A DNA stretch of 63,007 bases from Bacteroidales bacterium (lineage in GTDB: Bacteria > Bacteroidota > Bacteroidia > Bacteroidales > UBA932), in contig JAGONS010000001.1 of the NCBI GenBank assembly GCA_017992915.1, positions 1 through 63,007 on the forward strand, in the 5' to 3' direction. The notes beneath the pieces are model-generated. The model saw nothing but the letters and a program-made list of their open reading frames with translations, did no database searches and was not told the origin of the DNA. Made by a program: the position numbers and the translations under genes. Below, piece after piece: positions 2,940 to 57,386 of this stretch; the stretch's first letter is position 1, and each line of letters begins with the position of its first letter.

Positions 2940-4255
2940 GAGATATCACTATGAAAGCGCTCCAGATGGCGCTGGATGCAGGAGCATCGGATGTACGGGT
3001 GGTTTTCGAGAAGGGAAACGGCGATATGGTCACAATCCTCAACGGAGAAATAGACCGACTATATCAAGCTGCCAGTTCCGCTCTCAATTTCCATATTTTT
3101 GCCGAGGGCAGGTACGGCTCATTTTCCACCAATCTGTTTGATGACGCAACGCTGAGGAAGTTTACCACCGATGCGGTCAATGCCACGCTCCTGATGACCC
3201 CCGATGAGTGCAGATCTCTGCCCGATAAGGGTATTTGCTACAATGGAGGCGGACCCGACCTCCGGCAGTATGATTCTTATATTGAGACACGTCCTTCTTC
3301 CGGAGGTGTTACTATTGCACACGAAGTAGCGGCCGAGATGCTCTCCGAAGAGAGGGTTGTTTCAGCAGAGAGCGAGTATGGCGACTTTGTGGAGGAGTAC
3401 TTCATCGCAGACAGTCAGGGATTTGAGGGATATCAACGCAGATCCGGCTTCTCGATTGGAGCTACCTGTTCAGTCGCCGGTAAAGGTGACGAAAAACACG
3501 AAAGAAGTTGGTATGAGGATGAGGTTTTCTTTGCCAATCTCCGATACCGTGGATGTGGTAAAAAAGCTCTGAAAATGGCAATTGAAAGCATCGGTCCGCT
3601 TAAAATGCCTTCCGGTTCTTATAATATGGTCGTGGACAGGACCATTGCTGCAAATCTGGTCATACCTATCACCGAAGCACTTAATGGCAGTGCCCTCCAC
3701 ACACGCAATTCCTTTCTGATGGACAAACTCGGGGAAAAGGTTTTTGGGGAAAATGTCTTCCTGAGAGATATGCCGCATACTGTCGGCAATGCATACTCCC
3801 GTCTCTTCAACATTGAAGGTATAGCAACAAAGGAGCGCGATATCATTTCAGGCGGTACTATTTGTAATTATTTCATTGACAACTATTACAGCCGCAAATT
3901 GGCACTTGAGGTAACTATCGGTAATCCTTCGGTTGTAATGATGCCGAAAAGCGAGCTTTTGTCAAATAATAAATTATCTTTGTCCGATATTTTGAAGAGA
4001 GCGGGCAGAGGGATTTATGTTACACAGTTTAACGGAGGTAACTGTAATGCCGCAACCGGAGACTTCTCCTACGGCATAGAGGGATTTCTGTTCGACAATG
4101 GAGAAATAGTCCATCCGATAAACGAAATGTTAATTTCCGGCAACCTGGTCACCCTGTGGAACAATCTAATAGCCGTTGCTGATGACCGGTTGGAGAGCCG
4201 CAAATGGCAGATACCTTCGCTATGCTTCTCGAACGTAAATTTTAACGGACTCTGA
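2936..4255 (+). CDS. pmbA: TldD partner protease subunit PmbA/TldE
   Basis: TldD/PmbA family without the HExxH motif. The start is placed at the ATGA overlap with the tldD stop (MRDITMKAL...). The listed 2870 start would lie inside tldD. Confidence 0.85.
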   Translation: MRDITMKALQMALDAGASDVRVVFEKGNGDMVTILNGEIDRLYQAASSALNFHIFAEGRYGSFSTNLFDDATLRKFTTDAVNATLLMTPDECRSLPDKGICYNGGGPDLRQYDSYIETRPSSGGVTIAHEVAAEMLSEERVVSAESEYGDFVEEYFIADSQGFEGYQRRSGFSIGATCSVAGKGDEKHERSWYEDEVFFANLRYRGCGKKALKMAIESIGPLKMPSGSYNMVVDRTIAANLVIPITEALNGSALHTRNSFLMDKLGEKVFGENVFLRDMPHTVGNAYSRLFNIEGIATKERDIISGGTICNYFIDNYYSRKLALEVTIGNPSVVMMPKSELLSNNKLSLSDILKRAGRGIYVTQFNGGNCNAATGDFSYGIEGFLFDNGEIVHPINEMLISGNLVTLWNNLIAVADDRLESRKWQIPSLCFSNVNFNGL

Positions 4256-49326: not shown

Positions 49327-50859
49327 ATGAAGACCCTATCCTTATTGCTTATACTTACGTTGCTCTCCTTCTGCAACAGGCAGAGTGAAAGGGTCACAGG
49401 TACATCTTCCGAAAATGATTCGCTCGGTACGGCAATTTCACCTCTGCCGGATACCTCTTTCTCCTCCGTCGAGGCATTAATATACGACATAACAATTTTC
49501 GATACAATCAACAGCGGAATTATCGAAGACTTAAGGGACCTGTACGACTCCGTTCCGGGCATATTGACCTTCAGAGGGGGTCCATACAGAGATTTCCCAA
49601 AATATGGGAAAGTGGCGGGCAGACCGGAATCAATTAGTGTCGACTGGACCTTTAAGACTGCATTCGATACCACAAAAACACCTTACGGCATCTGGGGAGG
49701 CGGCACGGGATGGACCGGACAACCTCTACTGGCAGAGTGGCCCGGTGACATTACCGGCGAAAATGCTCCAAACAGAGAAATCATCGTCGGCTCTCTCGCA
49801 GGAGAACTCTATTTCCTTGATTATTTAACCGGCCAACCCTCCAGAAATGCAATCGATGTCTTCAATGTCATTAAAGGCACACCTTCACTTGACCCCACAC
49901 TAAATGGTAACCTTTATGTGGGACAGGGAGTAGAGCTCAACCCTCCCTTCGGGGCAATGGTAATAGACCTGAATAAAGATGCCATAACTCATTTCGTACC
50001 GAAAGACCCCAAGGCATGGCGCGGATGGGGTGCATATGACTCTTCACCTATTAGGGTAGGGCAATTTCTTTTCAGATTGGGTGAAAACGGCACGATATAC
50101 AAATACCTTGTGGAACAGGGAACATTGAGTCTCCACTCCACCTTGAGATACAGAATCAAGGGTAAAAAGGCACCCGGTATCGAATCCTCACCGGCAATCT
50201 ACCGCAACTACGGCTACTTTACCGATAACAGCGGTAATGTGATCTGCTTCAACCTGAACAATCTAAAGCCGGTATGGAGATATGACAACCACGATGACAG
50301 CGATGCCACTCCGGTACTCTGCGAGGAGATGGGCATCCCCTACCTTTACACATCCTGTGAGGTTGACAAACAGGATTCCATAGGCTTTTCCCATTTTATT
50401 AAACTCAATGCCCTGACCGGCGAAAAGGTTTGGGAAAACAAAATCGCCTGCCAAAAAGCATTTTCAGAGGAAAAATGGTCTGATGGAGGAATGTTCTCCA
50501 CTCCGCTTCCCGGCATTGGAGATTGCAGCGAATACATTTTTGCCTCTATAGCTACACATATACCGGCCTACAAGGGAATTTTTATGGCCATTGACAAAAG
50601 CACAGGAAAGACACTGTACAGCATTGACCTCAAACGCTACGCCTGGTCCTCTCCCGTGCCGATGCTGGATCCCGAAGGAAAGATGTATATCTTTGCAGCT
50701 GACTGTTGGGGATATGTTTATCTCATTGAAGGGGGCACAGGAGAGGTGCTTCTTACACAAAAGGTGGGCATTAATTTCGAGGGGTCTCCGATAATAGTGG
50801 ACAATACTGTCATTATCGGTTCCCGCGGAGATAAGATTTACAAGATTTCAATTCATTGA
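49327..50859 (+). CDS. PQQ-like / BamB-like beta-propeller repeat lipoprotein
   Basis: Probable lipobox LLSFC. Recurrent propeller-blade motifs (G.LY.LD..TG, LN.L.PVWRY, ALTGEKVWE, DKSTGKTLY). Confidence 0.5.
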   Translation: MKTLSLLLILTLLSFCNRQSERVTGTSSENDSLGTAISPLPDTSFSSVEALIYDITIFDTINSGIIEDLRDLYDSVPGILTFRGGPYRDFPKYGKVAGRPESISVDWTFKTAFDTTKTPYGIWGGGTGWTGQPLLAEWPGDITGENAPNREIIVGSLAGELYFLDYLTGQPSRNAIDVFNVIKGTPSLDPTLNGNLYVGQGVELNPPFGAMVIDLNKDAITHFVPKDPKAWRGWGAYDSSPIRVGQFLFRLGENGTIYKYLVEQGTLSLHSTLRYRIKGKKAPGIESSPAIYRNYGYFTDNSGNVICFNLNNLKPVWRYDNHDDSDATPVLCEEMGIPYLYTSCEVDKQDSIGFSHFIKLNALTGEKVWENKIACQKAFSEEKWSDGGMFSTPLPGIGDCSEYIFASIATHIPAYKGIFMAIDKSTGKTLYSIDLKRYAWSSPVPMLDPEGKMYIFAADCWGYVYLIEGGTGEVLLTQKVGINFEGSPIIVDNTVIIGSRGDKIYKISIH

Positions 50860-50874
50860 CAAAAGAGATAGATT

Positions 50875-51462
50875 ATGGATAGAACATGGAAAGAGATAAC
50901 GGACATAGCGCTCCCGGCGCCGCGCCGCAAAGGAGGGATGCCTCTGATGGAGGCTCTCAACCGCAGGAAATCCTCCAGGGAACTAACCTCAAAGCCACTT
51001 GACTTGCAGACACTTTCGGATCTGCTCTGGGCTGCCTGGGGTTACAACCGAGATCACAAGCGCACTGCTCCCTCATCACATAACCGACAGGAAATAGACC
51101 TTTATGTCTTCCTCGAGAGCGGCACTTACATCTATGATGCTGCAGGCAACCGTCTGCTGCTCCACGATAACGATGACCTGCGCAGCCTTACCGGCACACA
51201 AGACTTTGTGGGCTCCGCCGCTGTAGAAATTGCAATGGTCGCCGACACATCAAAAATCAAGGGTAAAACTCCCCAGGGCACTATAGAGGCCATATACGCC
51301 AATACCGGCTTTATCTCCCAAAACATCTATCTCTTCTGCGCCAATGCAGGCCTTGGAGGCGTCACCCGCGCCATGGTTCCGAAAGAAGAACTGGCACAAA
51401 GGTTGCGGCTCAGCAATAGTCAGGTGATAACACTCGTCCATACTGTAGGATATAAAAAATGA
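50875..51462 (+). CDS. Nitroreductase-family (SagB-like) flavoprotein
   Basis: RRSSRE-type motif (RRKSSRE), LLWAAWG and a typical nitroreductase fold length (195 aa). Confidence 0.65.
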   Translation: MDRTWKEITDIALPAPRRKGGMPLMEALNRRKSSRELTSKPLDLQTLSDLLWAAWGYNRDHKRTAPSSHNRQEIDLYVFLESGTYIYDAAGNRLLLHDNDDLRSLTGTQDFVGSAAVEIAMVADTSKIKGKTPQGTIEAIYANTGFISQNIYLFCANAGLGGVTRAMVPKEELAQRLRLSNSQVITLVHTVGYKK

Positions 51463-51471
51463 AACCCCAAA

Positions 51472-52887
51472 ATGGAACAACTAAGGATACTTTTTGAACA
51501 ATTTACAGGCGAACAGCTACTATCAACGGAAGAACTTCCCTCATCCGGAAGCAACAGGCGTTATTTCCGCCTACAAAGCAAAAACCACTCTCTGATTGGA
51601 GCACAGGGCACCTGCGTGGATGAAAATATTGCTTTCATCACCATTGCCAGACACTTTCGCGATCAGGGACTTAAAGTACCGCAGGTGTACAACTGTAGTG
51701 AAGACAATATATATTATCTGCAAGAAGACCTTGGTGACGACACACTTTTCAGCCGAATAGCACAGGGGCGAGAGAGCGGTAAATACTCTAATAAAGAGAA
51801 GGAATTGCTCCTAAAGACAATTCGCAAACTTCCTGCAATCCAGTTTGAAGGTGCCAGAGGACTTGATTTCTCCATATGTTATCCTCAGCCGGAATTTGAC
51901 GAAAGGATGGTCTTTTTTGACCTCAACTATTTCAAATACTGTTTTCTTAAGGCAACCGGTATAGAATTCAGCGAAATAGAATTGCAGAATGATTTTGATT
52001 CAATGTCGCAAGTGTTGATGCACAATATGTCCGACACTTTCCTGTACCGTGATTTCCAGGCCCGTAATGTGATGATTGTTAATGATGAACCCTATTTCAT
52101 CGATTTCCAGGGTGGACGCAAGGGACCTATCTTTTACGATGTGGCATCATTCATATGGCAGGCAAAGGCCTGTTATTCGGAAAATCTCAAAAATGAACTT
52201 ATAGAGGCCTATCTGGATGCTCTTAAACAATATATTCCGGTAGACAAAAAACAGTTTCGTGCTACTCTACGCCATTTCGTACTATTCAGAACGCTACAGG
52301 TGCTGGGAGCATATGGTTTTAGGGGATATTTCGAGAAAAAACCACACTTCCTGCAGAGTGTGCCATTTGCGATAGACAACCTCAAGAAACTTCTTGTCGA
52401 ACCATTTACAGAGTATCCCTATCTGTCACAGATTCTTGGTGAGCTGACCCGCATGCGCGAATTTTCGGAGATGGGAGTTGATAGACGTCTTGAGGTTAAA
52501 ATCTACAGTTTTGCCTACAAAAAGGGTATTCCAAATGATGTCAGTGGCAATGGAGGCGGATATGTCTTTGATTGCCGAGCTCTTGAAAACCCGGGGAAGT
52601 ATGACCATTTCAAGCATTTCACCGGCCTGGACAAGGAGGTGGCCGATTTCATGGAAGCGGAAGGCGGGGTTCAAAAATTCCTAACCAAGGTCTATTCGCT
52701 CGCCGATACCCATGTTCAGAGATATATAGAGCGCAAGTTTACCCATCTGATGTTTTGTTTCGGTTGTACCGGAGGCCAGCACCGGTCTGTCTATTGCGCC
52801 CAGCATCTGGCAAGACATCTGGCCGGTAAGTTCAATATAAGGATTCACGTCTACCATCGGGAACAAGGTCTGGAGCAGGAGTTTTGA
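51472..52887 (+). CDS. Fusion protein: AmgK-like anomeric sugar kinase (APH fold) plus a RapZ C-terminal domain
   Basis: Residues 1 to about 335 carry the kinase motifs YRDFQARNVMI and FIDFQGG. Residues from about 339 to 471 align convincingly to the E. coli RapZ C-domain as I recall it (SFAYKKGIP, VFDCR.L.NP, TGLD, FGCTGGQHRSVY). Confidence 0.75.
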   Translation: MEQLRILFEQFTGEQLLSTEELPSSGSNRRYFRLQSKNHSLIGAQGTCVDENIAFITIARHFRDQGLKVPQVYNCSEDNIYYLQEDLGDDTLFSRIAQGRESGKYSNKEKELLLKTIRKLPAIQFEGARGLDFSICYPQPEFDERMVFFDLNYFKYCFLKATGIEFSEIELQNDFDSMSQVLMHNMSDTFLYRDFQARNVMIVNDEPYFIDFQGGRKGPIFYDVASFIWQAKACYSENLKNELIEAYLDALKQYIPVDKKQFRATLRHFVLFRTLQVLGAYGFRGYFEKKPHFLQSVPFAIDNLKKLLVEPFTEYPYLSQILGELTRMREFSEMGVDRRLEVKIYSFAYKKGIPNDVSGNGGGYVFDCRALENPGKYDHFKHFTGLDKEVADFMEAEGGVQKFLTKVYSLADTHVQRYIERKFTHLMFCFGCTGGQHRSVYCAQHLARHLAGKFNIRIHVYHREQGLEQEF

Positions 52888-52888
52888 G

Positions 52889-53638
52889 ATGAAGCCTTAC
52901 GCTCTGATATTCGCCGCAGGTCTGGGAACAAGACTCAAGCCGCTGACTGACACGATGCCCAAGGCACTAGTGCCTGTCGGAGGTATTCCGTTGCTGGAGA
53001 GAGTAATTCTTCGTCTAAAGGAGGCAGGGTACCGCCATATTGTGATCAATGTCCACCATTTTGCGGAACAGATTATGAATTTTATAGAGCAGAAGGAGTC
53101 ATTTGGGATTTCGGTAGCCATATCGGACGAGAGAGACCTGTTGCGCGAGACCGGTGGAGGCATTAAGCATGCTGCCAACCTGCTGAAGTCCGATCATTTC
53201 CTGGTTCATAACGTAGATATCATATCCAATCTGGACCTTTCACTCTTCGAGAAAAAATACCTGGAAACGGAAAAAGAGTATAACAATTCTGAAAAGCCTC
53301 TTCTGGCAACGATTCTGGTGAGTGAGCGTAAGACGAAGCGATTTTTTCTCTTTGACAGTTGTAACAATCTGGTCGGCTGGACCAATATCGCCACAGGTGA
53401 GGTTCGTTCTCCATTTCCGGAACTTGATCCCGGCAAATGTCGTAAACTTGCATTCGCGGGAATCCACAATATATCGGAGAGAGTATTTCCGCTTATGGAA
53501 AAGTGGCCTGAGCGTTTTTCAATTGTAGACTTCTATATCGAAAATTGTGACAAGTATATTATAAAAGGAATCGAAATACCCGGACTTGCAATCCGCGATG
53601 TAGGCAAGATTGCTGATCTGAAACAATTTAATTGTTAG
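52889..53638 (+). CDS. murU: Sugar-1-phosphate nucleotidyltransferase, MurU-like
   Basis: N-terminal AAGLGTRLKPLTDTMPKALVPV nucleotidyltransferase motif; 249 aa. Only 1 nt separates it from the kinase gene. Confidence 0.7.
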   Translation: MKPYALIFAAGLGTRLKPLTDTMPKALVPVGGIPLLERVILRLKEAGYRHIVINVHHFAEQIMNFIEQKESFGISVAISDERDLLRETGGGIKHAANLLKSDHFLVHNVDIISNLDLSLFEKKYLETEKEYNNSEKPLLATILVSERKTKRFFLFDSCNNLVGWTNIATGEVRSPFPELDPGKCRKLAFAGIHNISERVFPLMEKWPERFSIVDFYIENCDKYIIKGIEIPGLAIRDVGKIADLKQFNC

Positions 53639-55343: not shown

Positions 55344-57386
55344 ATGTTGAACCATTCATATTGTTCTGACAAATATCAGTATACGATGGGAAAATCATAC
55401 TACGACAGTGGTATGAAGGATACCATCGGTATATTCAATCTCTTTTACAGAACAGCTCCAGATAACAATAACTGGGCTGTAGTCAGCGGTATCAGCGAAG
55501 CGCTTGAAATGATTGCCGGACTTGGTTCGGAGGATGAGTCTTTCTTCGAGAAATTCCTTCCCGGAGATGAGTATGCAGAGTTTCGTTCCTATCTCGCAGG
55601 AATGAAATTCACAGGTCAGGTATATGCGATGAAGGAGGGTGAGATTGCATTTCCCAAACAACCGATAATCACCGTTGTAGGCCCCATAATCGAGGCGCAG
55701 GTACTCGAAACGCCACTCCTTTGCATAATGAACCACCAGATGGCCGTAGCAACGAAAGCCTCACGTGTTACTCGCAGCACTCCCAAACCGGTCAGCGAAT
55801 TTGGCTCGCGCAGGGCACACGGTCCATGGGCTGCCCAGTATGGCGCCAAGGCAGCTGTTATCGGAGGATGCCAAAGCAGTTCCAACATTCTCGCCGGCAT
55901 AGAGTGCGGATTTGAATCAACGGGCACAATGGCCCACAGCTATACTACATCATTCGGCTGCTCCATTGAAGGCGAATACAAAGCCTTTGACGCCTATATA
56001 AAGACACACAAAAACGAGCCGCTAATCCTGTTGATAGACACCTTTGACACTCTCAAATGCGGTCTGAAAAACGCAATCAAAGCCTTCCGGGCCAATGGTA
56101 TCGACGACTCCTATCCTCAGGGCTATGGAGTACGTCTCGACAGCGGAGACTTAACCTATCTCTCACAAAAGTGCCGTGAAGCGCTTGACGAAGCGGGACT
56201 CACAAAATGCAGAATATTTGCAACGAACTCTCTCGACGAGTATATCATTTCCGACCTTGAGAAGCAAAATGCCCGCATTGACAACTATGGCGTGGGCGAT
56301 GCCATTGCCACTTCCAAACACAATCCCTGTTTCGGCAATGTCTATAAACTGGTGCAGGTGGGTAATGAACCGGTACTCAAACGCTCCGAAGACAAGATCA
56401 AACTCATCAATCCTGGTTTCCAGATTACATACCGTCTGATTCAAAAGGGACGCTTTGAAGCCGATGTAACCTGTCTCAGAGGCGATTCCTTTGCCAAAAT
56501 CATAGAAGCCGGGGAAGAACTTACAATCGTGGACGAGATGGATGTGAGCAAGTTTACCACTTTCCCTGCCGGCTCATACACCTTCCGCAAACTCCAGGAG
56601 CTCGTATTCGACAATGGGAAAATCATCCCTGACACACGCACCATTCAGCAAAAAAGAGAGTACTATAAGGCAAATCTCGCCTGCTTTGACGAAACACAGA
56701 CCCGTATACTCAATCCCCACTTCTATAAAGTGGATATCTCCGATGACCTATATGATTTGAAAATGAAAATCATCAACAGGATAATCTTGCAGATCAATGC
56801 AATGGAGGAGATGGAAGACACCAGCGGCATAAGGAGATATACCCACGTAGTGGTAGATATGCTCTACGACTTTATAGACGGCTCCCTGGCTTGCACCAAT
56901 GCTGAAAAAGCAGTGGAGGAGAGTGTCAAATATATTGATGCACATCCGGGTCAAAAGGTTCTCTATGTGCTGGACAATCATCCGGAGAATCACTGTTCGT
57001 TTAAAAATAATGGGGGTATCTGGCCGGTACACTGCGTCCAAAAGACACGCGGAGGTGATATTCACGCCAGATTTTACCGCATAGAAAATGAATCCAACAG
57101 GCCTTCCCGCGAAAACAAATTTTACAAGGGCTGCAACCCCCGTAAAGAGCAATACTCCGGATTTGAGGGGCGTGACCGCGAAGGCATTGAACTCAACTCG
57201 TGTCTCAGCAAGGATGTCATAGTGAGCGGCATCGCTACCGAATATTGTATCCGCGAAACCTGTTTTGATCTGATCAAGGCCGGACACAATGTGTTCCTGC
57301 TTGAGAAAGCGCTCGCCTATATAGATGAGAAAGGACACGAAAAAACCTTAAGGGAACTGGCCAAAATCGGAGTAAAAATCATATAA
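55344..57386 (+). CDS. pncB: Fusion protein: nicotinate phosphoribosyltransferase (PncB) plus nicotinamidase (PncA, cysteine hydrolase)
   Basis: The N-terminal part (about 490 aa) has NAPRTase motifs (DKYQYTMG, FGSRRAHG, GTMAHSY, VRLDSGD). The C-terminal part (about 185 aa) has nicotinamidase motifs (VVVDMLYDF, DNHPENHCSF, GIATEYCI). Confidence 0.85.
   Translation: MLNHSYCSDKYQYTMGKSYYDSGMKDTIGIFNLFYRTAPDNNNWAVVSGISEALEMIAGLGSEDESFFEKFLPGDEYAEFRSYLAGMKFTGQVYAMKEGEIAFPKQPIITVVGPIIEAQVLETPLLCIMNHQMAVATKASRVTRSTPKPVSEFGSRRAHGPWAAQYGAKAAVIGGCQSSSNILAGIECGFESTGTMAHSYTTSFGCSIEGEYKAFDAYIKTHKNEPLILLIDTFDTLKCGLKNAIKAFRANGIDDSYPQGYGVRLDSGDLTYLSQKCREALDEAGLTKCRIFATNSLDEYIISDLEKQNARIDNYGVGDAIATSKHNPCFGNVYKLVQVGNEPVLKRSEDKIKLINPGFQITYRLIQKGRFEADVTCLRGDSFAKIIEAGEELTIVDEMDVSKFTTFPAGSYTFRKLQELVFDNGKIIPDTRTIQQKREYYKANLACFDETQTRILNPHFYKVDISDDLYDLKMKIINRIILQINAMEEMEDTSGIRRYTHVVVDMLYDFIDGSLACTNAEKAVEESVKYIDAHPGQKVLYVLDNHPENHCSFKNNGGIWPVHCVQKTRGGDIHARFYRIENESNRPSRENKFYKGCNPRKEQYSGFEGRDREGIELNSCLSKDVIVSGIATEYCIRETCFDLIKAGHNVFLLEKALAYIDEKGHEKTLRELAKIGVKII

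Follow-up and report, generated by a model that had tools for sequence, protein, structure and literature searches.

A gene in a 63,007-nucleotide (nt) window of Bacteroidales DNA encodes a 471-residue protein that joins an AmgK-like sugar kinase to the C-terminal domain (CTD) of RapZ, and the gene directly downstream encodes a MurU-like uridylyltransferase. The window, by which we mean the whole stretch analyzed, belongs to contig JAGONS010000001.1 of assembly GCA_017992915.1 (Bacteroidales bacterium; lineage Bacteroidales; UBA932). The fusion is a common form of the AmgK/MurU pathway that is known from database annotation but unstudied, and the copy in the window is a typical family member. 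With slightly better than even confidence, we read the gene pair from sequence comparisons and predicted structures as an AmgK/MurU salvage module whose CTD is an accessory, dimerizing and phospho-sugar-binding part and not an RNA adaptor. New for this window is the loss of MurA and MurB in its closest relatives, and the organism probably depends on the fusion.

Family assignment and distribution of the fusion

The open reading frame (ORF) of the fusion is single and intact, lies at the position and in the frame in which the original prediction had placed it, and contains every motif quoted there. Its TGA stop codon (52885-52887) is followed by one base (G) and then by the ATG (52889) of a 249-residue ORF. 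A frameshift artefact is excluded, as the same architecture recurs in all 116 loci that were retrieved and in over 8000 proteins of the databases.

Pfam APH matches residues 21-249 of the kinase (E = 8e-10), and among NCBIfam families AmgK fits the N-terminal part best (E = 1.8e-20). In an AlphaFold2 (AF2) model of the full 471-residue protein, with a predicted local distance difference test score (pLDDT) of 91.1 and a predicted template modeling score (pTM) of 0.84, the kinase part is closest by Foldseek to 3csv (target-normalized template modeling (TM) score 0.76) and also resembles other APH-type small-molecule kinases; a sequence search of the PDB matches it to 3csv as well. Asp194, Asn199 and Asp211 are invariant among 73 homologues. 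The downstream protein has MurU (NF045761, E = 1.1e-32) as its best NCBIfam family, the MurU structures 4y7t and 8hhd as its top two PDB matches (E ~2e-16), and a Pfam NTP_transferase match (E = 1.4e-15) with the GxGTRL nucleotide loop present, reading AAGLGTRLKPLT. Judged by their conserved residues, both enzymes look catalytically intact.

Neither protein reaches the equivalog cut-off of its family. The kinase scores 73.3 bits against 550 and 41.3 against 500 with the two AmgK models (NF045759 / NF045698), while the MurU-like protein scores 113.7 bits against 250 in an alignment that spans only profile positions 3-121 of 226. The identity of the substrate therefore rests on the best-family match, the gene pairing and the absence of MurA and MurB described below. 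The AmgK/MurU pathway of anabolic recycling of N-acetylmuramic acid (MurNAc), which likewise places an NTP-transferase gene after an APH-fold anomeric sugar kinase, provides the closest family and structure matches for both window proteins. It is found in Pseudomonas putida, P. aeruginosa, Caulobacter, Legionella and Tannerella forsythia. Compared with the NCBIfam AmgK models (324 and 360 positions), the window kinase carries an extra RapZ-type domain of 133 residues.

This domain is matched by PF22740, the RapZ C-terminal domain, at residues 341-465 (E = 6.8e-35, 120 bits against a cut-off of 27). The NCBIfam model of full-length RapZ (NF003828) aligns through profile positions 150-277 only and stays below its cut-off (105.5 bits against 244). 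A PDB sequence search matches the CTD to E. coli RapZ (5o5s, E = 3e-15), and an AF2 model of the CTD alone (pLDDT 95.1) superimposes on the same structure by Foldseek with a TM score of 0.90, a root-mean-square deviation of 2.0 Å and 33% identity; this search of the PDB returned no significant match other than RapZ. The window protein thus shares the CTD fold of RapZ, the RNase adaptor and glucosamine-6-phosphate (GlcN6P) sensor of E. coli (PDB 5O5O, 5O5S, 8B0I), and its homologue YvcJ, together with the loop G-C-T-G-G-x-H-R-S-V, the YVFD dimer strand and a tie to cell-wall amino-sugar metabolism. It differs from them in lacking the P-loop N-domain, the basic tail and GlmY/GlmZ, and it falls in a separate clade. 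These results bear out the original prediction of an AmgK-like APH kinase joined to a genuine RapZ CTD. They also agree with its proposal that another kinase fold has replaced the RapZ P-loop N-domain, since a Walker A motif is absent from 150 of 150 representatives, and that the MurU-like gene is a conserved partner, being directly downstream on the same strand in ~105 of the 116 loci.

Database entries for the fusion are named "phosphotransferase", "RapZ C-terminal domain-containing protein" or "RNase adapter RapZ". The last label is applied by NCBI to many kinase fusions that lack the N-domain of RapZ and do not reach its cut-off; it is a misannotation that is probably propagating. The original prediction had overlooked both the frequency of the architecture and its existing database names. 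None of the papers searched names AmgK together with RapZ or RapZ together with CX5R, and no study of the fusion was found.

Related Bacteroidales genomes carry exactly one PF22740 copy in 35 of 40 cases, always in a frame of ~470-500 residues. We also searched an even sample of 300 high-quality Bacteroidota genomes for PF22740 and for the kinase domain. PF22740 occurs in 42 of them, always as a single copy that is part of a fusion or forms a gene of its own (134-149 residues); the check for a stand-alone rapZ called for by the original prediction thus found at most one copy per genome and never a RapZ-sized frame of ~285 residues. The kinase clade is present in 45 of the 300 genomes, and 43 of these carry the CTD. 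In the other two (G067, L221:2590-4301; G254, L222:2202-3940), a kinase of the same clade is coupled directly to MurU and no CTD is present anywhere in the genome. A further genome (G298) has the kinase (L223:2635-3669) and the CTD (L224:1530-1940) unlinked, with the CTD adjoining a 428-residue ORF of no assigned function.

The 150 best cluster representatives at 50% identity, gathered using the CTD alone, comprise 105 kinase+CTD proteins, 8 kinase+CTD+MurU triple fusions, 1 CTD+MurU protein and several stand-alone CTDs, among others. The triple fusions (714-768 residues) keep the order kinase-CTD-MurU (P0136, P0143, P0177, P0201, P0218, P0244, P0262; and L219:4001-6169, which lies on a 93-kb ENA contig), and one was verified on contigs of two independent assemblies (ENA, Logan). 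Elsewhere the same order is distributed over three separate genes for a kinase (327-339 residues), a CTD (133 residues) and a MurU-like protein (L101:472-2600, L094:546-2697). These are tightly packed, with starts and stops that overlap or lie 3-4 nt apart; at L101, position 1491 is the last of the kinase gene and 1495 the first of the CTD gene. At L094 the kinase and CTD frames overlap by 35 nt, which may be a genuine split or a frameshift. The split and stand-alone CTD genes start at the position of the inter-domain linker in the window protein. Joins of the CTD to a solute-binding protein, a PDZ/S41 protease, HEAT repeats, TyrRS or GT1 (P0123, P0207, P0217, P0149, P0126) were set aside, as the truncated flanking domains make chimeric contigs or gene calls the most likely source. 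Taken together, the fused, split and domain-less versions show that the CTD, the third part of the module, is nearly constant yet can be separated from the others and dispensed with, and that the arrangement is ancient and modular.

Conserved core and remodelled rim of the RapZ-type pocket

We compared 254 kinase-linked CTDs, chosen without a motif constraint, with 79 canonical RapZ sequences (E. coli numbering for RapZ). The canonical sequences came from a metagenome scan, were selected on the GCTGG motif and share 43% or more identity with E. coli RapZ; in that group, conservation of the loop is therefore true by construction. Both groups share Ser166, Phe167, Gly172, Pro174, Phe181, Asp182, Arg184, Asn188, Pro189, Gly200, Asp202 and Val205, the loop G246-C-T-G-G-x-H-R-S-V255, and His276; Lys170 is conserved too. 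GCTGG.HRS is present in 146 of the 150 representatives and in all 116 loci. In RapZ this loop forms the pocket for sulfate, malonate and RNA phosphate (PMC5737377, PMC9841335), and in the crystals backbone amides and the Arg of its C-x5-R-S segment hold sulfate or phosphate. The equivalents of Cys247, Thr248, Gly249, His252 and Arg253 are kept in the window CTD. So is the YVFD strand, through which the RapZ CTD self-interacts and dimerizes (PMC5737377); its Phe and Asp are conserved in 100% of fused-type domains. Further RapZ motifs lie at residues 346-354 (SFAYKKGIP), 364-375 (YVFDCR..NPG) and 384-387 (TGLD).

Around this core the fused-type domains diverge. His190 of RapZ is replaced by Gly in 100% of them, the RNA-contacting Arg238 corresponds to Phe423, and Asn236, which adjoins the pocket in E. 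coli RapZ, corresponds to Arg421. Ahead of the dimer strand, four residues are inserted and GG stands for Ala177-Asp178, producing a SGNGGG stretch that is found in at least 91% of the 254 fused-type domains and in 0 of the 79 canonical sequences. Cys368 (FDCR) is likewise family-specific and present in 98% of fused-type domains. In a phylogenetic tree the fused-type CTDs form one group, and the branch between it and canonical RapZ has 100% support. The original statement that the CTD matches RapZ almost motif for motif does not hold at the pocket, given the His190-to-Gly and Arg238-to-Phe changes and the added Arg421, Cys368 and GNGGG. A conserved core with a remodelled rim suggests a ligand related to, but different from, that of RapZ, which may not be GlcN6P.

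The loop also recalls the C-x5-R-(S/T) signature of Cys phosphatases such as protein tyrosine phosphatases (PTP), low-molecular-weight PTP and ArsC. Cys432-TGGQH-Arg438-Ser439 has the same spacing and sits, as in those enzymes, between a strand (residues 425-432) and a helix (438-453). In the CTD, however, the motif sits close to the C-terminal end, and no fold likeness is detectable. A fold like that of PTP, low-molecular-weight PTP, rhodanese or EIIB of the phosphotransferase system was considered for the CTD and rejected, as Foldseek returned dual-specificity phosphatases and PTPs only at E >=4 and probability <=0.04. The fold reported to be nearest to the RapZ CTD is the fructose-6-phosphate-binding subdomain of 6-phosphofructokinase (PMC5737377). 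Chains of that enzyme are among the weak Foldseek matches to the window CTD, at a marginal level (E ~2, probability ~0.1), and its binding pocket is not conserved there.

MurA and MurB in the genus, and the surroundings of the operon

Of 24 genomes from the window's genus, only 7 have both MurA (TIGR01072 above cut-off) and MurB (PF02873); the other 17, some of them 90-98% complete, have neither. Where present in the genus genomes (G000-G023), murA and murB are adjacent. Among 16 relatives from other families of the order, MurB is found in all 16 and MurA above cut-off in 13. In a tree of the fused protein, the window copy groups at 100/100 support with those of G019, G011, G006 and G016, all of which lack MurA and MurB; three of these four genomes are 90-91% complete.

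The later steps of the pathway are retained. Both the window's own genome and the relatives without MurA and MurB encode MurC and its ligase paralogues, and the closest relatives keep murC-F, anmK and murQ. AnmK is present in 12 of the 17 genomes without MurA and MurB, as opposed to 0 of the 7 with them, and MurQ scores above cut-off in 14 of the 17 as opposed to 0 of the 7; the window's own genome is among the positives in both cases. Since MurA and MurB are absent while MurC is kept, peptidoglycan is built from UDP-MurNAc without the usual source of this precursor, leaving the kinase/MurU module as the sole visible route. From this gene content, the module is probably the only route to UDP-MurNAc in the bacterium of the window, in whose genome only one kinase of the AmgK-like clade was found. 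Phosphorylation of MurNAc, or of N-acetylglucosamine (GlcNAc), at position 1 by the kinase is argued from the same genomic context.

T. forsythia is a muramic-acid scavenger with a comparable gene set (PMC7670621), and the gene set of the window's clade is likewise that of such a scavenger. The AmgK and MurU of T. forsythia produce UDP-MurNAc and function in E. coli (PMC7670621, PMC10941766); in the window's bacterium, as in T. forsythia, this pathway would replace MurA and MurB. The genus thus seems to hold a MurNAc-auxotrophic lineage separate from Tannerella. According to the authors of the T. forsythia work, that species has no AnmK (PMC7670621).

Directly upstream of murQ, and overlapping it, G016 encodes a 283-residue sugar-kinase-like protein (L218:~3250-4100) that has a weak NagK match (E = 1.5e-7) and no Pfam match. 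A copy of this gene in the window's own genome is cut by a contig end (L217:3-581). By analogy with the murK-murQ pair of T. forsythia, the protein may be a MurK-type MurNAc 6-kinase. The neighborhood of anmK in the window's own genome contains no phosphatase candidate.

Table 1 Features of the fusion and its partner in the window, and cell-wall genes elsewhere in the same genome (G000).
Feature	Position	Strand	Remark
Kinase-RapZ-CTD fusion ORF, 471 aa	51472..52887	+	Single frame, zero internal stops
APH-fold anomeric-sugar-kinase domain, aa 1-335	51472..52476	+	Pfam APH, NCBIfam AmgK, Foldseek
SNRRYFR, aa 27-33		+	Kinase domain
Catalytic loop YRDFQARN, aa 192-199	52045-52068	+	Kinase domain
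Mg-binding DFQGG, aa 211-215	52102-52116	+	Kinase domain
Inter-domain linker, ~aa 327-340	52450..52491	+	pLDDT dip to 66 at aa 331-340
RapZ C-terminal-type domain, aa 339-471	52486..52884	+	PF22740, PDB search, AF2 + Foldseek
SGNGGG Gly-rich stretch, aa 358-363	52543..52560	+	Kinase-linked type only, just N-terminal to dimer strand
YVFD strand, aa 364-367, then fused-type-specific Cys368 and shared Arg369	52561..52578	+	RapZ-CTD dimer-interface strand 179-182
Anion-binding loop GCTGGQHRSVY, aa 431-441	52762..52794	+	RapZ C247, T248, G249, H252, R253
MurU-like sugar-1-phosphate uridylyltransferase (putative), 249 aa	52889..53638	+	1 nt past kinase stop codon
anmK	G000:C25:5488-6519		Window's own genome
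murQ	G000:C32:604-1365		Window's own genome
murC	G000:C47:20857-22164		Window's own genome

A SagB-like gene of the nitroreductase family (50875-51462, +) stops 9 nt ahead of the kinase start and neighbors the kinase in only 17 of the 116 loci. It is preceded by a 510-residue ORF (49327-50859, +) with a hydrophobic N-terminus and PQQ/BamB-like β-propeller repeats. Further downstream, a 680-residue ORF (55344-57386, +) combines a nicotinate phosphoribosyltransferase (NAPRTase N and C domains) with an isochorismatase/nicotinamidase-type domain, placing two successive steps of NAD salvage in one protein; a homologue is found near the kinase gene in 29 of the 116 loci. A scan for promoters and terminators around the operon gave nothing above chance level.

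Role of the CTD and identity of the salvaged sugar

In the reading we favor, the kinase would convert MurNAc (possibly GlcNAc too) and ATP to the sugar-α-1-phosphate, and the MurU-like enzyme would convert MurNAc-1-phosphate (MurNAc-1P) and UTP to UDP-MurNAc, making the pair the Bacteroidia version of the anabolic salvage route. The bacterium would be a MurNAc scavenger like T. forsythia, with the module as its sole source of UDP-MurNAc. The CTD would act as an autonomous third module of the pathway, whether it is joined to the kinase alone or to both enzymes, or has a gene of its own between them. Because the phosphate-binding loop and dimerization strand of RapZ are kept, we infer that the CTD brings two copies of the enzyme together and that its ligand is a sugar phosphate or a nucleotide sugar. 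A MurNAc phosphate, with its phosphate and lactyl carboxylate, or a UDP-sugar would fit the additional Arg, Cys and Gly-rich loop of the pocket. Once ligand-bound, the domain might tune kinase output or pass the product to MurU; it would be accessory, not needed for the chemistry, and have no role as an RNase adaptor. The original suggestion of a CTD that senses and so ties recycling to amino-sugar homeostasis is one of several possible readings.

Several points weigh against this account. The window's genome is only 52% complete, and its lack of MurA and MurB is deduced from its relatives. The AmgK and MurU scores fall far under the NCBIfam equivalog cut-offs (73 against 550 and 114 against 250). 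G067 and G254 do without the CTD. Finally, a pocket whose Cys, His, Arg, Ser and Asp residues are so strictly conserved resembles an active site more than a plain binding site.

The last point leads to the main rival, unlikely but the most serious of the alternatives, in which the CTD is itself an enzyme: a Cys-dependent phosphatase, phosphotransferase or mutase with amino-sugar phosphates as its substrates. It might, for example, remove the 6-phosphate from AnmK-derived MurNAc-6-phosphate (MurNAc-6P) in the manner of MupP, after which the fused kinase would re-phosphorylate the sugar at C1 and hand it to MurU. The C-x5-R-S loop in its strand-loop-helix setting, kept in 146 of the 150 unbiased representatives and in canonical RapZ, fits such a role, as do the polar residues Asp182, Arg184, Asn188, Asp202, His252 and His276, which are invariant in both families, although the dimer interface already accounts for Phe181 and Asp182. 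In E. coli RapZ, the C247S substitution is inactivating and its authors raise a catalytic role; crystals soaked with GlcN6P showed a "chemically transformed" ligand (PMC9841335). A kinase domain adjoins the CTD in both architectures, and the distribution of AnmK (12 of 17 genomes without MurA and MurB, 0 of 7 with them) implies that the former make MurNAc-6P. Against this, Foldseek finds no fold-level likeness to Cys phosphatases (probability <=0.04), MurQ in the same genomes already provides a sink for MurNAc-6P, and the CTD occurs in genomes without AnmK, namely 4 of the 16 relatives from other families and the genus members that have MurA and MurB; the AnmK-less T. forsythia argues in the same direction.

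A broader version of this idea, which we also rate as rather unlikely, is that the RapZ CTD is fundamentally a module for catalysis or phosphoryl handling on amino-sugar phosphates, invariably working next to a kinase, P-loop in RapZ and APH here. The unit in Bacteroidales without MurA and MurB would then be a two- or three-step machine leading from MurNAc-6P (supplied by AnmK) or MurNAc to UDP-MurNAc, in which the Cys-x5-Arg loop would perform MupP-like dephosphorylation or a 6-to-1 phosphate shuffle, and enterobacterial RapZ would have recruited the phosphate pocket for RNA binding only late.

It is doubtful that the CTD is instead a purely structural dimerization or scaffold module, holding together two kinase subunits and perhaps MurU, with a loop that has no functional ligand. 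The conserved YVFD strand, the placement of the CTD between the two enzymes in the triple fusions and the operation of the core pathway without it in G067, G254 and Pseudomonas are all consistent with a scaffold. Such a module would not, however, keep an anion pocket invariant across anciently diverged families, nor would it need the family-specific Arg421, Cys368 and GNGGG beside that pocket.

An alternative of a different kind, which we regard as improbable, concerns the sugar: the pair might salvage another N-acetylhexosamine, with GlcNAc or GalNAc converted to the corresponding UDP-sugar. The scores under the AmgK and MurU equivalog cut-offs leave room for this, as does the restriction of the MurU match to the N-terminal, nucleotide-binding half, and APH-fold anomeric kinases for different sugars exist, NahK being an example. 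AmgK and MurU are nonetheless the best-scoring families and PDB matches, genomes without MurA and MurB that have MurC need a route from MurNAc to UDP-MurNAc, and only a single kinase of this clade was found in the window's own genome.

Last, an RNA adaptor role, in which the CTD would bind RNA and recruit a ribonuclease as E. coli RapZ does and so couple salvage to post-transcriptional control, is unlikely, and we give it very little credence despite the homology to the RNA-contacting domain of RapZ, the conserved Lys170 and Arg184 and a net charge no different from that of canonical RapZ domains: no GlmZ scores over threshold in 40 Bacteroidales relatives (the E. coli control was detected), supporting the original expectation that the GlmY/GlmZ circuit is absent; His190 (H190A abolishes GlmZ cleavage), Arg238 and Lys251 are replaced by Gly, Phe and Gln; the RapZ N-domain, the suggested mediator of the RNase E interaction (PMC5737377), is lacking; and the CTD is genetically tied to two enzymes. 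The basic tail of RapZ (Lys270, Lys281, Arg282, Lys283) is also missing, the tail here reading GKFNIRIHVYHREQGLEQEF, but its absence says little because this tail is weak in most non-enteric RapZ proteins as well. Net charge of the CTD and tail was dropped as evidence against RNA binding, since the E. coli basic tail is an outlier and the means for fused and canonical domains (-0.4 and -0.3) do not discriminate.

RapZ has been studied almost solely as an enterobacterial RNA adaptor; the structural papers on RapZ themselves hint at chemistry in its conserved C-terminal pocket. The fused family sets this domain in an RNA-free, enzyme-only context with a defined pathway from MurNAc through MurNAc-1P to UDP-MurNAc, and the natural fused, split and domain-less versions make the function of the pocket directly testable by simple enzyme and binding assays. 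The findings also bear on the cell-wall biology of gut and digester Bacteroidales, in that a whole clade of the genus appears to lack MurA and MurB and to live on scavenged muramic acid. If so, the fusion enzyme would be essential in that clade, which would be without the target of fosfomycin.

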